This document shows positions 9,201-21,221 of a DNA stretch of 64,000 bases, one piece after another (positions within the stretch are counted from its first letter, which is position 1; each line of letters starts with the position of its first letter). Origin of the DNA: an uncultured delta proteobacterium (GTDB taxonomy: Bacteria > Myxococcota_A > Polyangia > Polyangiales > Polyangiaceae); contig CAWJCS010000006.1 of the NCBI GenBank assembly GCA_963841435.1, positions 1,312,001 through 1,376,000 on the forward strand, given 5' to 3'. A model generated the notes under the pieces. That model saw only the letters and a program-made list of their open reading frames with translations, was not told the DNA's origin and searched no databases. The translations under genes and the position numbers were made by a program.

Positions 9201-9502
9201 GCGGGTGCGACTCCCCCGGGTGCGCGGCGCTGTCAAATGGAGCCCGGTCGGGAGCCGAGAAAGGCGGACGAACGTGCCTGTCTGACCCGCGGGTCCACCG
9301 CCGCGACCGGTGTCTTTCGAGAAATCGATCGACGCGGTGGCAAGCTCCGCCGGTTGCTCGAGAAACGAAACCTGCGCGAAGGTCGGAGAGCGCGCCATGT
9401 CTACATGCGCGATTGGCGCGAGCTCATGTCGGGATCTCGCCCCGAAATGCTGCTGCCGCCGCGCCGCGTTGTAAGCGCCCGGCGGCGAGGTATGCTTTGG
9501 GA

Positions 9503-11554
9503 ATGGTGGAAGATGGGAGATGGGCGGCAGGTTCGAGCCGTTGGGCGTGGATTTCGCTGGTCCTCGTCGCCACGGGCTGCGTGGACCCGCTGGATGTCGT
9601 CGGGGTGGAGGAGACCGTCACGCAGACACAGAAGAACGACCCGCTCGCCGACGACCGGCTCGACGACAAGCACCCCGCTTACGACGCGTTGAGAACGGTC
9701 GAGGAAGATTTCGAGGGCTGCGGGGTCACGTTGAACAAGAGCGCGAGCGTCACGCGCCTCACGCTGCAATCGAACGGCGCCAGCGATAACGCGCTGCGAG
9801 GCAAGATCTTTCCGAATCGCGACGCCGCGCGCGCCGCGCTCGGGGGCGCCCCCACGCTTCCGACCATCGAAGTCGTCAACGGTGCGCTGAAGCCGTTCAA
9901 CGACGGTCTCTATGCTGCCGTGGAGCTCGCCGCCGAACGCGGTGACGCCGCGACCGTCAACAAGCAGGCCCTCTTCACCGCCTTGCTGACGGAGCTCCTC
10001 GCGCGCTCGCAAAATGGGAGCCAGGCCGAGAAGCCGCAGGCGCTCGCCGCAGCGAAGCACGTTGCGACGGCGCTCACACTCTCGGGAGACCTCGCGAGCG
10101 CTCCGGCGGATGTCGCTGCCGACGCCGACGAAGCCGCGACACGCTTCCGCGCGGCTGGCATCTTTGCCAAACCCATCGGGTTTTACACGTGGACCCCCGA
10201 GCTCGAAACCATCTTCACGCGCGATCGCTGGCTCCAGAGCCGTTACATCCCCGGTGCCACGGTCACTGACCCGCCGTTTGGCGGCCTCGCCGAGCTCGGG
10301 CTCGTCGTCGGAACGCCAGGGGCGCTTTCCGACGCGTACCGCAAGACGCTCGAGCTCTACGCTGGGCTCACCGATCCCTTCTTCGACAGAACGCCCTTCG
10401 ATCTCTCGCCGTTCGTGCCCGACGCGGCGGCGCTCGCGGATCTATCGAACGTGGAGCAACGCTTCGCCGACACCTTGCCGGTCGACTACCCGGGGTATCC
10501 CTTCTGCAATCCCGGTGTTGCCGCCATGCCTGCCTCGGAGAGCGCGGAAAATCGCATGATGCGAAGGCTCCTGTGTGGCGAAATGTTGATCGACGGTGAG
10601 ACCCTCATCGACGGCCTCATCCGCACCATCCAGAGCGGCGAGCTCGATCTCACGCCGCGTGAGGACTCCGGCTTTTACGACCAACAGCTCTTCGTGCTCG
10701 AAACACTGCTCGTTCCCGACAAGGCAAGCGAGTCGCAGCACCTCTTGCTCACCCGGGCGTACAAGGAAAAGCTGGTCGAGACGTTCAAGTCGCTCCTCAT
10801 CCAGTCCCGCGAGACGCACGCGAAGCAGGTGGCGATCGTCAACGCGGTCTCTTTGTCGTACCAGCCGCCACCCACCGAGTTCACGATTTACCCGAAGCTC
10901 GTCGTCGAGCCGTTCCCGACGTTTTACCTGCGCACGGCGCGTGCGTACCGCTTTCTCCAGGGCGTGCTCGACGCTGCGCTCGGGACGGACTTTGCGAAGA
11001 CGACGGCACGGCTCATCGAGGACGGCACCCGCAGCGACCTCTCGATCGGCGAGGAGCTGGCCGAAAAGGAGCAGCTGCTCTACGGGCTCCACGCGCTCGC
11101 GGCCGACTCGATCGGCATGGCGCCCGAGCTCGGTGCCGACGAGCTCGCCGATTTCCCGCTGGATGCCGCGCGCACGGCCGCGAACGCCTGGCTCGTGCAC
11201 GTGGCGAGCGATTCCGACGTTGGACGCGACCCGCGCGTGAGCCTGCCGGTCGCGCTCGAGACGGATGCCGAAACCAACGTTGACTACGCGATTTACTGGA
11301 TCGTAGCCGGGGTGAAGATCATCCACCTCCACGCAAGTTTCTCGGATGCGCGGCGGCCGGAGGTCGTAAAAGTGCCGCCCAACTGTATTCACAAGGGCTG
11401 GTCTGCGTTCGAGCCGTACATGTTGGTGGAGCAAACGATCCAAGCGCGCCGCCGCGCTGACCTGCCGCCGCTCACGCGCGGAGAGCTGCGCGCCCTGTGC
11501 GACGAGCACGACGACGCCGAGTCCATCAAGGCGGCCTTCGAGACGGCCCCGTGA
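9503..11554 (+). CDS. Large lipoprotein, DUF3160-like
   Basis: Lipobox LVATGC; KPIGFYTW...IFTRDRWLQ, RETHAKQ and VEPFPTFY resemble DUF3160 motifs. Confidence 0.55.
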   Translation: MVEDGRWAAGSSRWAWISLVLVATGCVDPLDVVGVEETVTQTQKNDPLADDRLDDKHPAYDALRTVEEDFEGCGVTLNKSASVTRLTLQSNGASDNALRGKIFPNRDAARAALGGAPTLPTIEVVNGALKPFNDGLYAAVELAAERGDAATVNKQALFTALLTELLARSQNGSQAEKPQALAAAKHVATALTLSGDLASAPADVAADADEAATRFRAAGIFAKPIGFYTWTPELETIFTRDRWLQSRYIPGATVTDPPFGGLAELGLVVGTPGALSDAYRKTLELYAGLTDPFFDRTPFDLSPFVPDAAALADLSNVEQRFADTLPVDYPGYPFCNPGVAAMPASESAENRMMRRLLCGEMLIDGETLIDGLIRTIQSGELDLTPREDSGFYDQQLFVLETLLVPDKASESQHLLLTRAYKEKLVETFKSLLIQSRETHAKQVAIVNAVSLSYQPPPTEFTIYPKLVVEPFPTFYLRTARAYRFLQGVLDAALGTDFAKTTARLIEDGTRSDLSIGEELAEKEQLLYGLHALAADSIGMAPELGADELADFPLDAARTAANAWLVHVASDSDVGRDPRVSLPVALETDAETNVDYAIYWIVAGVKIIHLHASFSDARRPEVVKVPPNCIHKGWSAFEPYMLVEQTIQARRRADLPPLTRGELRALCDEHDDAESIKAAFETAP

Positions 11555-14449: not shown

Positions 14450-15988
14450 TCAGTCGTCGCCGAAGTGGATGCCCTGGGCCAGCGGGAGATCGGTGCCGTA
14501 GTTCACCGTGTTCGTCGCGCGCCGCATGTAGGCTTTCCAGGCGTCCGAGCCGGATTCGCGGCCGCCGCCCGTGTCCTTCTCGCCGCCGAACGCGCCACCG
14601 ATCTCGGCGCCGCTCGTGCCGATGTTGACGTTGGCGATGCCGCAATCGGAGCCCGAGGCCGCGCAGAAGCGCTCCGCCTCGCGCACGTCGTCGGTGAAGA
14701 TGGCGCTGGCGAGCCCCTGACGCACGCCGTTCTGCAGGTCGATCGCCTCGTCGAGCGTTCGATAGGGGAAAAAATAGAGGATGGGCGCGAAGGTTTCCTC
14801 GCCGACGATGGGCGTCGCGGGATCGATCTCGACGAGCGCCGGACGCACGTAGGCGCCGCCCTGGGGCACGGCGTCCGTCACGACCTCCCCGCCATGCACG
14901 GTGGCCCCGGCGCTGCGCGAAAGCTCGAGCGCGCGCTGCATCGCGTCGAGCGCTCGCCGGTCGATGAGCGGCCCCATCAGCGTGCTGGGCTCGCGTGGAT
15001 CGCCGATGCGGACGCCGCGGGCCGCGTCGAGCAGGCGCCCGCGCAGGGCAGGGAGCACGCTTTCGTGCGCGATGAGGCGCCGGAGCGAGGTGCAGCGCTG
15101 CCCGGACGTGCCGACCCACGAAAACAGCGCCGAGCGCGTCGCAAGATCGAGGCGCGCGCTCGGCGCGACGATCATGGCGTTGTTCCCGCCGAGCTCGAGC
15201 AGTGTGCGCCCGAGCCGCGCGGCCACGACCTCCCCGACGCGCCGCCCCATGCGCACCGATCCCGTCGCCGAAACGAGCGGGACGGCCTCCGAGCGTGCGA
15301 GCACCTCACCGACCGAAGCATCGCCGATCACCACGGAAAAGAGGCCGTCCGGCACCTCCGGCGTCTCGCGCGCGGCGCGCCCGAGCAGCGCGTGGCAAGC
15401 GAGCGCCGAGAGCGGCGCCTTCTCCGACGGCTTCCACAGCACCGGATCGCCCGCGACCAGCGCGAGCGCGGTGTTCCAGGCCCAGACGGCGACGGGAAAG
15501 TTGAACGCCGTGATCACGGCGACGGGGCCGAGCGGGTGCCATTGCTCGGTGAGACGGTGATGGGGCCGCTCGCTCGCGATGGTGAGCCCATAGAGCTGCC
15601 GGCCGAGACCGACCGCGAAGTCGGCGATGTCGATCATCTCCTGGACCTCGCCGCGGGCCTCCGCGACGATTTTGCCGACCTCGTGGGTGACGACGGTGGC
15701 AAGATCGCTCTGGTGCTCGCGCAAGAGCGCGGCGAAGCGCCGCAAAAGCTCGGCGCGGCGCGGCGCTGGAACCAGGCGCCAGCTCGAGAAAGCGCGGCCT
15801 GCGCGCTCGACGGTGCGGTGTGCCTGCTCCGGTGTCGCCATGCGGCCCGAGGCGATCGCCTGGCCGTCGATGGGCGAGCGCACGACGAGCTCGCCGCCCT
15901 GACCCGGTTCGGCGTCGCCGCCGCTGGAAACGCCGGGTAGCGTGCTTGCCACGCCGAGCCGCGATAGGGCCGCCGACAGCGCGCTCAC
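14450..15988 (-). CDS. amaB: ALDH7-type aldehyde dehydrogenase (piperideine-6-carboxylate / aminoadipate-semialdehyde dehydrogenase)
   Basis: GEVQEMIDI, TAFNFPVAVW, LELGGNNA, GQRCTS, GAEIGGAFGGEK.TGGGRESGSDAWK; GTG start overlaps the upstream stop. Confidence 0.9.
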   Translation of the reverse strand: MSALSAALSRLGVASTLPGVSSGGDAEPGQGGELVVRSPIDGQAIASGRMATPEQAHRTVERAGRAFSSWRLVPAPRRAELLRRFAALLREHQSDLATVVTHEVGKIVAEARGEVQEMIDIADFAVGLGRQLYGLTIASERPHHRLTEQWHPLGPVAVITAFNFPVAVWAWNTALALVAGDPVLWKPSEKAPLSALACHALLGRAARETPEVPDGLFSVVIGDASVGEVLARSEAVPLVSATGSVRMGRRVGEVVAARLGRTLLELGGNNAMIVAPSARLDLATRSALFSWVGTSGQRCTSLRRLIAHESVLPALRGRLLDAARGVRIGDPREPSTLMGPLIDRRALDAMQRALELSRSAGATVHGGEVVTDAVPQGGAYVRPALVEIDPATPIVGEETFAPILYFFPYRTLDEAIDLQNGVRQGLASAIFTDDVREAERFCAASGSDCGIANVNIGTSGAEIGGAFGGEKDTGGGRESGSDAWKAYMRRATNTVNYGTDLPLAQGIHFGDD

Positions 15989-17124
15989 GTGAGCTCTCCT
16001 CCGAAGTCGATGCTCGCGAGCGAAAATTCGCTCCTCGTGCTCGACCGGTAGTGCTCGCCGAAGCGGTTCGCGAGGAAGGCTTCGAGGCTCACCGACTCCT
16101 GCTTGACGAAGCCCTGCGCCTGCAGCTGCCCGGCACGAAATAGATCCACCATCACGCAGACCCCGGCCGCCGTGGTGAGCTGGATCGCGCTCCAGCTCTG
16201 GCCCGCGATCGTCTGGCTGTAGATTTTTCGAGCGTCGCTCACCTGCACGAGCATGCCGTTCTTCCAGCCCGTGACCGTGCAGAAGACCACCACGACGTCC
16301 TGAAACGTGACGGGCACGGCCCGCTCGAGGATCTCCTTCAGGAGCTCGCGCGACTCGCCGAGCCTGAGCTCGCTCAGCAAGAACGACATGTAGTCGCGGT
16401 GACCCTGGTAGCGGATGGTCTTGTAGTTGAGCTCCCGCACGCGGCCTTCGAGCGATTCGCACAGCGTGCCGAGACCACCCGACGTGTTGAAGGCCTCGTA
16501 GCGCACGCCGTCGATCGAGAAGTGCTCGAGCCCCTCGAGTGGCAAGACCTCGCGGATGCGCCCCTCGTGAATGGCCTCGCAGGGGTTGAGGTACTCGTTG
16601 ATGAGCCCGTCGGTGGACCAGGTGAGGTTGTATTTGAGGACGTTCGACGGAAACTGGGGCAGGGCGCCCACGCGCATGAACACGCGATCGAGGCGGTCGA
16701 AGCCGCGCGTGAGGTCGTTGGCGGCGACGGACACGAAGCCGGGGGCGAGCCCGCATTGTGGCATGAAGACCTGACCCGGCCGGGCGTGCTCGGCGACAGC
16801 CCGGACGCGCCGCGTGGTCTCGCGATCTTCGGTGAGGTCGAAGTAGCTCGCGCCGACCTCGGCGCAGATCTCGGCAACGCGAGGATTGTGGGCGTACGAG
16901 AGCGCCGAAACCACGATGTCTTCCGCGCCGATCGCGAGCTTCAAGGCGCCCGCGTCCGCGGCGTCGAGCTTCTGGGGCGCAGAGGCCGGCACGCGCGACG
17001 CGAGCAACGCGAGCGCTGCGTCGTCGCGATCGCCCACGCGCACGGCGTAGTCGCCCGAGGCCGACAGGAGGTTGGCGATGGTGCGGCCGATTTTGCCCGC
17101 GCCGAGGATGAGCACACGTTTCAT
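15985..17124 (-). CDS. Saccharopine dehydrogenase family / lysine 6-dehydrogenase-like
   Basis: GAGKIG, YFDLTED, QCGLAPG, RVGALP, YNLTWSTDGLINEY, EAFNTSGG, YKTIRY.GH. Confidence 0.88.
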   Translation of the reverse strand: MKRVLILGAGKIGRTIANLLSASGDYAVRVGDRDDAALALLASRVPASAPQKLDAADAGALKLAIGAEDIVVSALSYAHNPRVAEICAEVGASYFDLTEDRETTRRVRAVAEHARPGQVFMPQCGLAPGFVSVAANDLTRGFDRLDRVFMRVGALPQFPSNVLKYNLTWSTDGLINEYLNPCEAIHEGRIREVLPLEGLEHFSIDGVRYEAFNTSGGLGTLCESLEGRVRELNYKTIRYQGHRDYMSFLLSELRLGESRELLKEILERAVPVTFQDVVVVFCTVTGWKNGMLVQVSDARKIYSQTIAGQSWSAIQLTTAAGVCVMVDLFRAGQLQAQGFVKQESVSLEAFLANRFGEHYRSSTRSEFSLASIDFGGELT

Positions 17125-17324
17125 GGCGCTGTCGCGGAGCGTTCCGCCCCGGCTGTCCGGTGCAGACGACCGCGCTTTAATCAAGTTTGGGGTCCAGGGC
17201 GCAGAGCGCAACCCCTCGCGAGCCGAAGCTTCGGTTTGTCGTGGTGAAGGGTGCGACAAGGTGCCCCGCCGGCGCTTCGCCCTGCGCCTTGTTGGGGAGG
17301 CCGTCGTCGGACAAACTTTGGCTC

Positions 17325-18719
17325 ATGGCCGACTCGAACGACGTGGCGTTCTCGCCGGAGCCGTCGGCCGCGCGCGTCGTCGGCGAGCTTCTGACGCGCT
17401 TCAGCGACGGCTCGGCGGCGGCGCGAGCGCTTGCCGCGCATCTTCTCGAGTCGGCAGGCACGCGCCTTTGCGATGTCGTGGAGGTGCTGTCGGTCGCGGG
17501 GGACGGCGAGCTCCGCCGTTCGCTCGTCGCGCAGGGATTTCGGACGCTGCCGAGCGAAGGGCTCGTGAGCGGCGCGGAGCTCTTCGAGCACCCGCGGGCG
17601 CTCCTGCCGCTCGTCGAGCTTCGACCGTACGGCAAGGCGCGCGCGTCCGTGCGCGTGGATTCGCTGCCCGACTTTCTCGAGGCCAGTGGCGCCAGGCCGC
17701 TCGAGCTCGAGGGGGACGCGGGGGCGCTGGTCCGGCGCGCGCTCGTCGCGAGCGAGGGCGAATCCGAGCTTTTCGTGCACGAGCGCTGGGGCGCGCGAAA
17801 GCTCGTGACGGTGCGCGACGCGGTTTCGCGGGGGCCGGGCGTTGCCGCACGCGAGAAGCACCTCGAAGCGTTCCGGCTCAGACCACGGCCGCTCGCTGAC
17901 CCGGAGGCAACCTTTCGCGCCGCGGCGCTACTCGTGCGCGCCGCCCAGCGCGATCTCGGCGAGGCGGTGGCGTGCGAGGTGTTCTTCGAGGCCGAGCGTC
18001 GCTACTACGTTCGGCGCAATCGCGCGGCGCGCGTCCAGCTCGCACGACAGGACGCGCTCGGAGCCGGCTTTCACAATCGCGATCATCATACCTACCGGTC
18101 GAGCCGCGCGGCGTTCGCGGCGCTGGTTGGCACGCTCGAACTCGTGGGGCTTCGCTGCCGGGAGCGCTTCTACGCCGGACACGAAGCGGGCTGGGGCGCG
18201 CAGGTGATGGAGCATCCGGAGCTCGGCATCTGCGTGTTCGCCGATGTCGATCTGAGCCCCAGCGAGATCAACGGCGATTTCGCGCACCGCGGGCTCGAGC
18301 CTCGCGACGAGCTCGGCACGGTCGGGCTCTGGTGCGAGCTGCACGGCGAAGCGTTCGGTGCCGCGGGGCTTCACCACCTCGAGTGCCAGTTCGATTTTTC
18401 GCGCGCGCGGGCGCTCCTCGAGGCGGACGGCGTCGGCGTGATGCCGCCCTTCACGGATTTTTCCCATTTGAAACAAGCCTTCACCCGCGGGGAGCTCTGG
18501 CCGCTGGCCGCCGACCGGCTCGAGCGCGCCCGGGCCGCGGGGTGGCTTTCGGCCGAGGCGGCCGAGCGCCTCGCGCGCGAAGGGTCGCTCGGGTCGCATT
18601 TCGAGCTGCTCGAGCGCAACGACGGCTACAAGGGCTTCAACCAGGCGGGCATCAACCGCATCATCCAGGCGACGGATCCACGCCGCGCCGAAGCGCCGCT
18701 CGCCGCCCAGGCTTCCTGA
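17325..18719 (+). CDS. VOC/HPPD-like fold protein, putative Fe(II) dioxygenase
   Basis: DHHTYRSSR, GLHHLE and FELLERNDGYKGF resemble the His/His/Glu motifs of HPPD- and DUF1338-type enzymes. Confidence 0.6.
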   Translation: MADSNDVAFSPEPSAARVVGELLTRFSDGSAAARALAAHLLESAGTRLCDVVEVLSVAGDGELRRSLVAQGFRTLPSEGLVSGAELFEHPRALLPLVELRPYGKARASVRVDSLPDFLEASGARPLELEGDAGALVRRALVASEGESELFVHERWGARKLVTVRDAVSRGPGVAAREKHLEAFRLRPRPLADPEATFRAAALLVRAAQRDLGEAVACEVFFEAERRYYVRRNRAARVQLARQDALGAGFHNRDHHTYRSSRAAFAALVGTLELVGLRCRERFYAGHEAGWGAQVMEHPELGICVFADVDLSPSEINGDFAHRGLEPRDELGTVGLWCELHGEAFGAAGLHHLECQFDFSRARALLEADGVGVMPPFTDFSHLKQAFTRGELWPLAADRLERARAAGWLSAEAAERLAREGSLGSHFELLERNDGYKGFNQAGINRIIQATDPRRAEAPLAAQAS

Positions 18720-19796: not shown

Positions 19797-20915
19797 CTAC
19801 TTTGCCGTGCCCGTGAGCGGGTAGCCGCGCGTCTTCCACTCGAGGATGCCCTCGTCGAGCACGGCCGTGTGCTTGTACCCACGGGACCTGAGCGCGCTCA
19901 CGACCTCGCCGGAGGCGTGATGCGGACACGCGCAGTACGCGATCACCCAGGTGCCGTCGTTCGGAATGCGCGAGAGCTGCTCGGCCGCGTAGTACGGCAC
20001 GGAGATCGCCCCCGGAATGTGGAAAAGCTCCCAGTCGGCCGGTGAGCGCGCATCGATGATCACCATGCGCCGCCGCTGGTCGAGGGCCTTCTTCACCTCG
20101 GCCGCCGGCACGTAGCGGTCGTCGCGCATCGTGAACTTTGGCGCGGTGCCCTTGGGGTTGATCACGATGGGCAGGTTTGCGGGGATCGTCGGCGCCGTCG
20201 GGTGAGCGTCCGCGCTCCCGGGGGCCTTGCTCCTGAGCCACGCGATCACGTCCTCGATCTGGCCCGGGTTGAGCTTCTCGGCGAAGGACGGCATCGGCGT
20301 CGGCGGTCGGCCGTGGACGATGGCGAAGCGCAGAAAGTCCGGCGAAGCCGCACGCAAGAACTCCGGGTTGTAGAGGGTCAGCGCGGTCTTTCGCTCGGTC
20401 TCCGTGCCGTGGCACGTCTCGCACTCCGCCGCGTAGACGGCTCGACCGAGCTCGGCGTTGCCTTGCACGCTCGACTTCGGAAGCGGGTGAGCAGGGGGCC
20501 CTTTCTGCCTGAGGAAGCCGACGAGGCGTGCGATGTCGGCGTCGTCGAGCGGTCCGCCACGGACCTTGCCGTAGGCTCCCATTGCCGTGGCGGGGCGTCC
20601 GAGGCGGATGGCGCTGGCGATGAACGCGTCGTCGACGCTCTCGAGAAAGGTCTCGGTCACGAGTGACGGCGCGTTGTCGGCGGCGTAGCCCGTGGCGTCC
20701 TTGCCGTGGCAAAGAGCGCAGTAGCGTTGGTAGAGCGCTTCGCCCGACTCCTTGGTCGCCGCGGGAGTGGGGGCGGATGCCGAAGGCGGGCCCGTGAGCG
20801 TGGGGGCCGTCGACGGGGCCCGTGAGGGTGCGCCCTCGGGGCTCGAGCGGCGGGCACAGCTCGCGGCGAGCCCGAGCGTCAGAAGGAAGGTGAGGACTGT
20901 CGAAGGGAGGCGCAT
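19797..20915 (-). CDS. Lipoprotein: diheme cytochrome c fused to a rhodanese domain
   Basis: Lipobox LAASC; CALCH and CETCH, each with a distal Met; IIDARS...HIPGA...YCAC...LDEGILEW. Confidence 0.88.
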   Translation of the reverse strand: MRLPSTVLTFLLTLGLAASCARRSSPEGAPSRAPSTAPTLTGPPSASAPTPAATKESGEALYQRYCALCHGKDATGYAADNAPSLVTETFLESVDDAFIASAIRLGRPATAMGAYGKVRGGPLDDADIARLVGFLRQKGPPAHPLPKSSVQGNAELGRAVYAAECETCHGTETERKTALTLYNPEFLRAASPDFLRFAIVHGRPPTPMPSFAEKLNPGQIEDVIAWLRSKAPGSADAHPTAPTIPANLPIVINPKGTAPKFTMRDDRYVPAAEVKKALDQRRRMVIIDARSPADWELFHIPGAISVPYYAAEQLSRIPNDGTWVIAYCACPHHASGEVVSALRSRGYKHTAVLDEGILEWKTRGYPLTGTAK

Positions 20916-21014
20916 GAAATGAGGGCGGTCGAAAGGGACTCTGGGGCTGCCCGTCGTGGCCGACACGTGGGAGGTCCTGTATAATCCCATCCGTTCGTCT
21001 AGCCGAGCCCGCCC

Positions 21015-21221
21015 ATGGGAACCCTGAGCCCCGTCCACTGGATCGTCGCCGCCGTGGTGATCCTGTTGCTTTTCGGCCCGAAAACGCTGTCGCGTGTCGG
21101 GCGAACGGCCGGGCGTGGAGTGCGGTCGGTGAACAACCTGAAAAAGAGCTTCACCGAGGCCCCCCAGAAGCTCATCGAGGACGTGAAGCGCATCGAGCCA
21201 CCCGGAGACGGGGGCGACTGA
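21015..21221 (+). CDS. tatA: TatA/E twin-arginine translocase subunit
   Basis: HWIVAAVVILLLFGPK TM with FG hinge, then an amphipathic helix. Confidence 0.8.
   Translation: MGTLSPVHWIVAAVVILLLFGPKTLSRVGRTAGRGVRSVNNLKKSFTEAPQKLIEDVKRIEPPGDGGD

Follow-up and report, generated by a model that had tools for sequence, protein, structure and literature searches.

What does an unannotated protein of 464 amino acids (aa) do beside two genes of lysine catabolism? The question was raised by a 64,000-nucleotide stretch of DNA (the window) from an uncultured delta proteobacterium of the family Polyangiaceae (assembly GCA_963841435.1, contig CAWJCS010000006.1, positions 1,312,001 to 1,376,000 of the forward strand), in which the gene for this protein is divergent from a lysine 6-dehydrogenase-like (LysDH-like) gene and amaB. 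To our knowledge, the bacterial step after 2-oxoadipate is known only via HglS (DUF1338) or a dehydrogenase complex. The analysis assigned the 464-aa protein to a large family without a name, which has two domains and is only very remotely related to the oxygenase HglS. The protein is probably an HglS-like Fe(II)/O2 2-oxoadipate dioxygenase-decarboxylase that completes the LysDH-AmaB route. This assignment draws on the identities of the genes, the fold, the equivalence of residues with those of HglS, and the conserved linkage with lysine genes, whereas the metal, substrate, product and O2 dependence are predictions.

Fold and predicted active site of the 464-aa protein

The gene of the 464-aa protein, its domains and its predicted functional residues were located in the window as follows:

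17325..18719, plus strand: gene of the 464-aa protein, an unannotated two-domain HglS-like (DUF1338-like) VOC family (ATG start at 17325; model and structural matches)
17325..17819, plus strand: N-terminal VOC domain of the DUF1338-like type, residues about 1-165, probably without catalytic function
17946..18698, plus strand: C-terminal VOC domain, residues about 208-458, predicted to be catalytic
18084..18098, plus strand: H254-x3-R258 (DHHTYR), with the first Fe ligand and the Arg for the distal carboxylate, both predicted, aligned with DH..R of DUF1338
18375..18377, plus strand: H351 (GLHHLE), predicted second Fe ligand, aligned with NH.T of DUF1338
18603..18605, plus strand: E427 (FELLER), predicted Glu ligand, aligned with YEF..R of DUF1338

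The AlphaFold2 model of the protein, built on a 24-sequence alignment, had a pLDDT of 90.9 and a pTM of 0.90. In the model, the central VOC beta-sheet fold that also occurs in the structures 3lho, 3iuz, 2rjb (YdcJ), 6w1g (HglS of P. putida) and 6w1k (FLO7 of rice) is present. A Foldseek search against the PDB placed HPPD and hydroxymandelate synthase (HMS) at the top, with E-values of about 2e-9 and low TM scores. Structural comparison, which covered only residues 208-458, gave values of 13.2 for HMS, 12.5 for YdcJ, and 12.4 for both P. putida HglS and HPPD; the closest relatives by structural comparison were the HglS/DUF1338 structures, with HglS and FLO7 ahead of HMS and HPPD by about 3 Z units. 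The sequence identity was 13-17% to the solved HglS/DUF1338 structures and 11-20% to the solved HPPD and HMS structures. An earlier, sequence-only reading of this DNA had proposed a VOC fold like that of HglS and HPPD, and the model upheld the proposal, with HglS/DUF1338 structures as the best structural matches.

By its fold, the 464-aa protein is a tandem of two DUF1338-like VOC domains, which are joined by a helical linker of roughly 80 residues. This two-domain layout recalls HPPD, whereas HglS and the other representatives of DUF1338 (PF07063, "HGLS") have a single DUF1338 domain. In an hhalign comparison of 106 family members, reaching down to about 30% identity, with 45 short DUF1338 proteins, residues 15-101 of the N-domain were paired with DUF1338 positions 3-96 (probability 91%, E 9.4e-7). 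The first-ligand position of the N-domain (residue 54) is occupied by Val in the 464-aa protein, and the N-domain is therefore probably non-catalytic in it; the D-H pair is kept in 69 of the 106 members. Judging from the aligned sequences, the degeneration of the N-domain varies within the family.

The hhalign comparison also aligned the C-domain co-linearly with nearly the whole DUF1338 protein (E 0.0018), pairing H254/R258 with DH..R, H351 with NH.T, E427/R431 with YEF..R, and G437-F438 with GF. When the DUF1338 profile was aligned with the PDB, DH..R fell on H70..R74 of HglS and NH.T on H226; the equivalence of E427 and Glu294 was obtained via the YEF motif of DUF1338, without a direct alignment to 6w1g, and in the model E427 is part of strand 421-431, the last long one in the C-domain. 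By these profile alignments, H254, H351 and E427, together with R258, correspond to His70, His226, the Glu ligand and Arg74 of HglS. Thus, the match of the His/His/Glu residues with the HglS triad, which the sequence-only reading had proposed as a check, was recovered in the alignments and extended to the specificity Arg. As described in PMC7286885, the metal ligands of HglS are His70, His226 and Glu294, and Arg74 makes a salt bridge to 2-oxoadipate's distal carboxylate and dictates specificity for this substrate; the R74A variant is inactive, and Arg at this position is kept in >99% of the bacterial homologues retaining the triad. Within the family of the 464-aa protein, H254 is conserved in 102, R258 in 98, H351 in 98, and E427 in 95 of the 106 members. 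The motifs DHHTYR (residues 253-258), GLHHLE (348-353), FELLER (426-431), YKGF (435-438) and IIQAT (446-450), which had drawn attention to the protein in the first place, were all found in the translation, and they are not due to chance, as most of their residues do not vary among 24 homologues that share 47-71% identity. A first, shallow hhalign run against short-type DUF1338 had reached a probability of 6.9%, and against the alignment of long (YdcJ-type) DUF1338 proteins nothing was obtained (E 0.37).

No Pfam family matched the protein up to an E-value of 10, with the 464-aa and 510-aa forms alike, and the NCBIfam search gave no match. A search of the PDB with the single sequence returned only antibody chains (E > 0.6), and a search with the family profile returned Mini-RNase III at E 0.07; neither was relevant. 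At least 3603 homologues were found in a collection clustered at 90% identity, and 550 representatives were counted at 50% identity. The 120 homologues among the matches listed had no Pfam domain and were designated "hypothetical" where named, and the neighbours in the ESM Atlas were unnamed clusters only. Longer, fused forms of the protein were not found in a search that constitutes weak evidence. Planctomycetota account for most of the carriers with a name, and Polyangiaceae, Bryobacterales and Verrucomicrobiae are also represented. Full-text literature searches, judged on listings and abstracts with the exception of PMC7286885, revealed no description of such a family. In three planctomycete genomes, a distant paralogue of about 400 aa was also observed (G261:C1:8634811-8635908, G351:C68:59132-60229, G429:C1:4250994-4252073; E about 1e-70, profile positions 16-387), which seemingly has no C-terminal strand bearing the Glu ligand; G261 and G429 also carry a full-length PF07063 protein (E about 1e-115).

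Lysine genes of the window and their linkage across relatives

The 464-aa gene is preceded in the window by the following features:

14450..15989, minus strand: amaB, L-piperidine-6-carboxylate (2-aminoadipate semialdehyde) dehydrogenase, 513 aa (NF050084 and Aldedh)
15985..17124, minus strand: LysDH-like gene of the saccharopine-dehydrogenase family, 379 aa (Sacchrp_dh_NADP and Sacchrp_dh_C)
17125..17324, no strand: divergent intergenic region of 200 bp that separates the 464-aa gene from the LysDH-amaB operon (read from the sequence)

The translation of 14450-16000 (-) scored 746.4 bits against NF050084 (cut-off 730), at the level of an equivalog, and the AmaB product contained an Aldedh domain (E 3.5e-124). 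In the LysDH-like product, Sacchrp_dh_NADP and Sacchrp_dh_C scored 64 and 60.5 bits, respectively; the NCBIfam scan gave no equivalog match for this product, and its closest solved relative was 3abi (PH1688; E 6.9e-20), which we take to be a lysine dehydrogenase. The start codon of amaB (GTG, at 15989) and the stop codon of the LysDH-like gene (TGA) overlap as GTGA, so the two genes are translationally coupled, as the sequence-only reading had stated for this minus-strand pair. The start of the 464-aa gene (17325) lies on the opposite strand, 200 bp from the start of the LysDH-like gene (17124), in agreement with the divergent layout across about 200 bp that had been described.

Conservation of this arrangement was assessed in the 80 best loci, on contigs from one genome per species. 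According to tblastn, an orthologue of LysDH (55-73% identity) was present in the flanks of 38 of the 80 loci, and amaB in the flanks of 27. In 34 of the 38 linked loci, LysDH is located upstream and is divergent, as in the window, with gaps of mostly 94-660 bp between the tblastn matches of LysDH and of the 464-aa homologue. When only the 47 loci flanked by 3 kb or more on each side were counted, LysDH was detected in 22 and amaB in 18. Unbiased clustering of the neighbours of the 80 loci revealed no other family in more than six loci. On a tree of 78 sequences, which excluded 14 loci whose matches were short or interrupted, the LysDH-linked loci were distributed among Polyangiaceae, Pirellulales, Planctomycetaceae, Gemmataceae and Verrucomicrobiae. 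The linkage with lysine genes, proposed earlier as a check, was therefore found in several phyla. Two labels on the tree deserve mention: the protein of the locus named "uncultured Alcaligenaceae" (L021) is almost identical to that of Gemmataceae L013 (end branches 0 and 0.024), and a metagenome-assembled genome (MAG) labelled Candidatus Kuenenia (L032) clusters tightly with Planctomyces sp. SH-PL62 MAGs (L007, L018 and L034). Both cases probably reflect mistakes of binning or labelling in public databases.

Occurrence among genomes and partner enzymes

In the own phylum of the window, the 464-aa family was found in three of the 251 sampled genomes (G000, G029 and G085), and close orthologues of LysDH (E 1e-124 or better) were present in exactly the same three; the other three LysDH matches were paralogues at 35-37% identity. 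The identical pattern indicates that the cassette behaves as one unit with a patchy distribution. It was not present in any of 18 further genomes from the family to which the window belongs, and the patchy occurrence suggests horizontal acquisition of the whole cassette.

Among Planctomycetota, 18 of the 251 sampled genomes hold the 464-aa family (E 3.4e-131 or better) and 46 hold LysDH. The latter was detected in 9 of the 18 carriers and in 37 of the 233 non-carriers (Fisher p 0.0015, with related genomes that are not independent). Nine of the 46 LysDH genomes have the 464-aa family, three have PF07063, and none has both. A profile search gave no PF07063 matches in the window's own genome (95% complete), and PF07063 was likewise lacking in five other carriers, in each of the 18 carriers among Planctomycetota and in all three own-phylum carriers. 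This absence is compatible with displacement. It had been proposed earlier that the family and DUF1338 should exclude each other; no carrier shows an overlap, but PF07063 is itself rare (18/251 and 19/251 genomes), and only about 1.3 overlaps would be expected in Planctomycetota (Fisher p 0.63), so that the exclusivity says little and is statistically uninformative.

An aminotransferase is the enzyme type needed to make a 2-oxo acid. As the sequence-only reading had noted, the aminotransferase of the route lies outside the window. A class I/II aminotransferase gene was located directly upstream of the 464-aa homologue, on the same strand, in five of the nine planctomycete carriers without LysDH and amaB; its products scored 477-495 bits against NF005305, with 3ele as the best PDB match:

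L098:6786-7961, plus strand: upstream aminotransferase
L094:9631-10857, minus strand: upstream aminotransferase
L095:9456-10643, minus strand: upstream aminotransferase
L097:6180-7358, plus strand: upstream aminotransferase
L100:6565-7755, plus strand: upstream aminotransferase

Since these five loci are close kin, they carry the weight of about one or two independent cases.

For the step after 2-hydroxyglutarate, the own genome encodes a candidate of YdiJ architecture (L109:2075-5524 (+) = G000:C3; up to 1149 aa), with an FAD-oxidase part and a GlpC-like Fe-S part. Two GlcD-like FAD oxidases of the same genome could also oxidize 2-hydroxyglutarate.

Proposed route and its alternatives

In the proposed route, amaB, LysDH and the 464-aa gene would act as a lysine-catabolic cassette. 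LysDH would oxidize the epsilon-amine of L-lysine to yield 2-aminoadipate semialdehyde or L-piperidine-6-carboxylate, AmaB would convert these to 2-aminoadipate, and an unlinked aminotransferase would produce 2-oxoadipate. The C-terminal VOC domain of the 464-aa protein is predicted to bind Fe(II) via H254, H351 and E427 and to chelate the 2-oxo-carboxylate of 2-oxoadipate, with R258 holding the distal carboxylate. With O2, the protein would decarboxylate and hydroxylate 2-oxoadipate to 2-hydroxyglutarate, which an FAD-linked dehydrogenase would then oxidize to 2-oxoglutarate. The N-domain would be a degenerate copy of the same fold with a probably structural role, like the N-domain of HPPD.

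Comparison with known systems places the protein closest to HglS. The interpretation given by the sequence-only reading is thus supported, and among its refuting conditions, those that were examined did not speak against it. HPPD and HMS rank below the DUF1338 structures in Z, and membership in the HPPD/HMS families was not supported by a Pfam match of any kind; unlike these enzymes, the 464-aa protein carries the Arg of the dicarboxylate-binding HglS and has lysine genes, not aromatic-catabolism genes, as neighbours. In the mammalian-type route, a 2-oxoadipate dehydrogenase complex, a thiamine diphosphate (ThDP)/lipoyl multi-enzyme complex yielding glutaryl-CoA, is followed by glutaryl-CoA dehydrogenase (GcdH). 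The likeness to this route is that 2-oxoadipate is carried onward in lysine catabolism and that gcdH follows the 464-aa homologue in three loci (L002-L004); however, nothing in the 464-aa protein resembles a ThDP/lipoyl complex.

Several results weigh against the assignment to an HglS-like 2-oxoadipate dioxygenase-decarboxylase. The PF07063 model did not match the 464-aa protein even at E 10, so the protein lies outside the family by gathering score; in the C-domain alignment the hhalign probability was 14.8%, and the hidden Markov model scores were 10-18 bits. The same lack of a DUF1338 match means that the novelty, which by the sequence-only reading a strong match would have removed, stands. 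By sequence criteria the protein is outside PF07063, whereas by its modelled fold and four aligned functional residues it would work like a member. Four more near-invariant His residues (H255, H340, H350 and H425) have no counterpart in DUF1338. Among the genomes, 9 of the 18 planctomycete carriers had neither LysDH nor amaB at the thresholds used, and 34 of the 46 LysDH genomes had neither the 464-aa family nor PF07063. In the own genome, the best NF005305 score in the search for a 2-aminoadipate aminotransferase was 192 bits (cut-off 376), and the YdiJ-like protein reached 482.6 bits against its best NCBIfam match, D-2-hydroxyglutarate dehydrogenase YdiJ (cut-off 1350). Finally, in the three closest Polyangiaceae relatives, the 464-aa homologue is followed by gcdH (L004:11391-12581 (+), L002:11389-12579 and L003:2412-3602), which encodes a 396-aa acyl-CoA dehydrogenase and is separated from it in L004 by 4 bp. 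The products matched GCDH structures of the PDB at E 4e-129 to 1e-107, and other acyl-CoA dehydrogenases at 3e-70 or weaker. The loci thus form a four-gene amaB-LysDH / X464-gcdH cluster, X464 denoting the 464-aa homologue. The HglS chemistry, from 2-hydroxyglutarate to 2-oxoglutarate, can do without GcdH, and the linkage is therefore a hint of a branch through glutaryl-CoA.

Some of these observations bear on the explanation that the fold and the Fe(II)/2-oxoacid chemistry are as proposed but that the protein acts on another substrate or yields another product, such as hydroxylation at another carbon, a product of the glutaryl-/glutaconyl-CoA branch, or, where a genome lacks LysDH and amaB, another dicarboxylic 2-oxo acid supplied by the adjacent aminotransferase. 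The co-operonic gcdH, the carriers without the two lysine genes and the extra His residues all favour it, and PMC7286885 notes for HPPD and HMS that the same fold can shift the hydroxylation site. We nevertheless regard it as unlikely, because R258 occupies the position of HglS Arg74, the residue that dictates 2-oxoadipate specificity in the same source, because the gcdH linkage is limited to one closely related clade (3/80 loci), and because the own genome, in which no family-III CoA transferase (PF02515) that would activate a free acid was found, has an unlinked gcdH in surroundings without a clue to the pathway. A related view holds that the family is more than a second HglS, in that the duplicated domain and the four extra invariant His residues could steer a reaction that begins in the same Fe(II)/2-oxoacid way to a different end. 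The product could then feed glutaryl-CoA dehydrogenase, as hinted by the X464-gcdH operon, or the reaction could be independent of O2; if true, either would be a new reaction in lysine catabolism. We consider this view unlikely.

It is improbable that the protein is a VOC enzyme that works without O2 (such as an isomerase, epimerase or lyase) on an intermediate derived from lysine, with the metal as a Lewis acid only, since its nearest structural relatives, by about 3 Z units, are the oxygenases HglS and FLO7, followed by HMS and HPPD, and the full 2-His-1-Glu triad and the Arg of the oxygenase are conserved. The sampled carriers, namely Planctomycetota, Polyangiaceae, Bryobacterales and Verrucomicrobiae, are also mostly aerobes. 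Finally, the protein might not take part in lysine breakdown as a catalyst, the adjacency to LysDH and amaB being historical or the protein being a sensor or binding protein. Of the 47 loci flanked by 3 kb or more on each side, 24 indeed show no adjacency; however, the divergent layout is kept across phyla, the complete genomes without adjacency (G251 and G253) still have LysDH elsewhere, and the catalytic-type residues are near-invariant, which makes a non-catalytic role very improbable.

In Planctomycetota, Polyangiaceae and Verrucomicrobiae, the conserved partner of LysDH and AmaB is a separate family that neither Pfam nor NCBIfam detects. Naming and assaying the family would annotate thousands of "hypothetical" genes, and its assignment would complete the lysine-degradation maps of these three groups. 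In addition, the intramolecular 2-oxoacid oxygenases of the HglS/HPPD/HMS group would gain a branch with two domains.

The flanks of the cassette in the window encode NDH-2, a methyltransferase and a cytochrome c-rhodanese fusion, none of which is related to lysine metabolism. An open reading frame (ORF) at 9413-11554 (+) encodes a 713-aa protein with no Pfam match, and the ORF at 19797-21038 (-) encodes a 413-aa protein with two cytochrome c domains and a C-terminal rhodanese domain.

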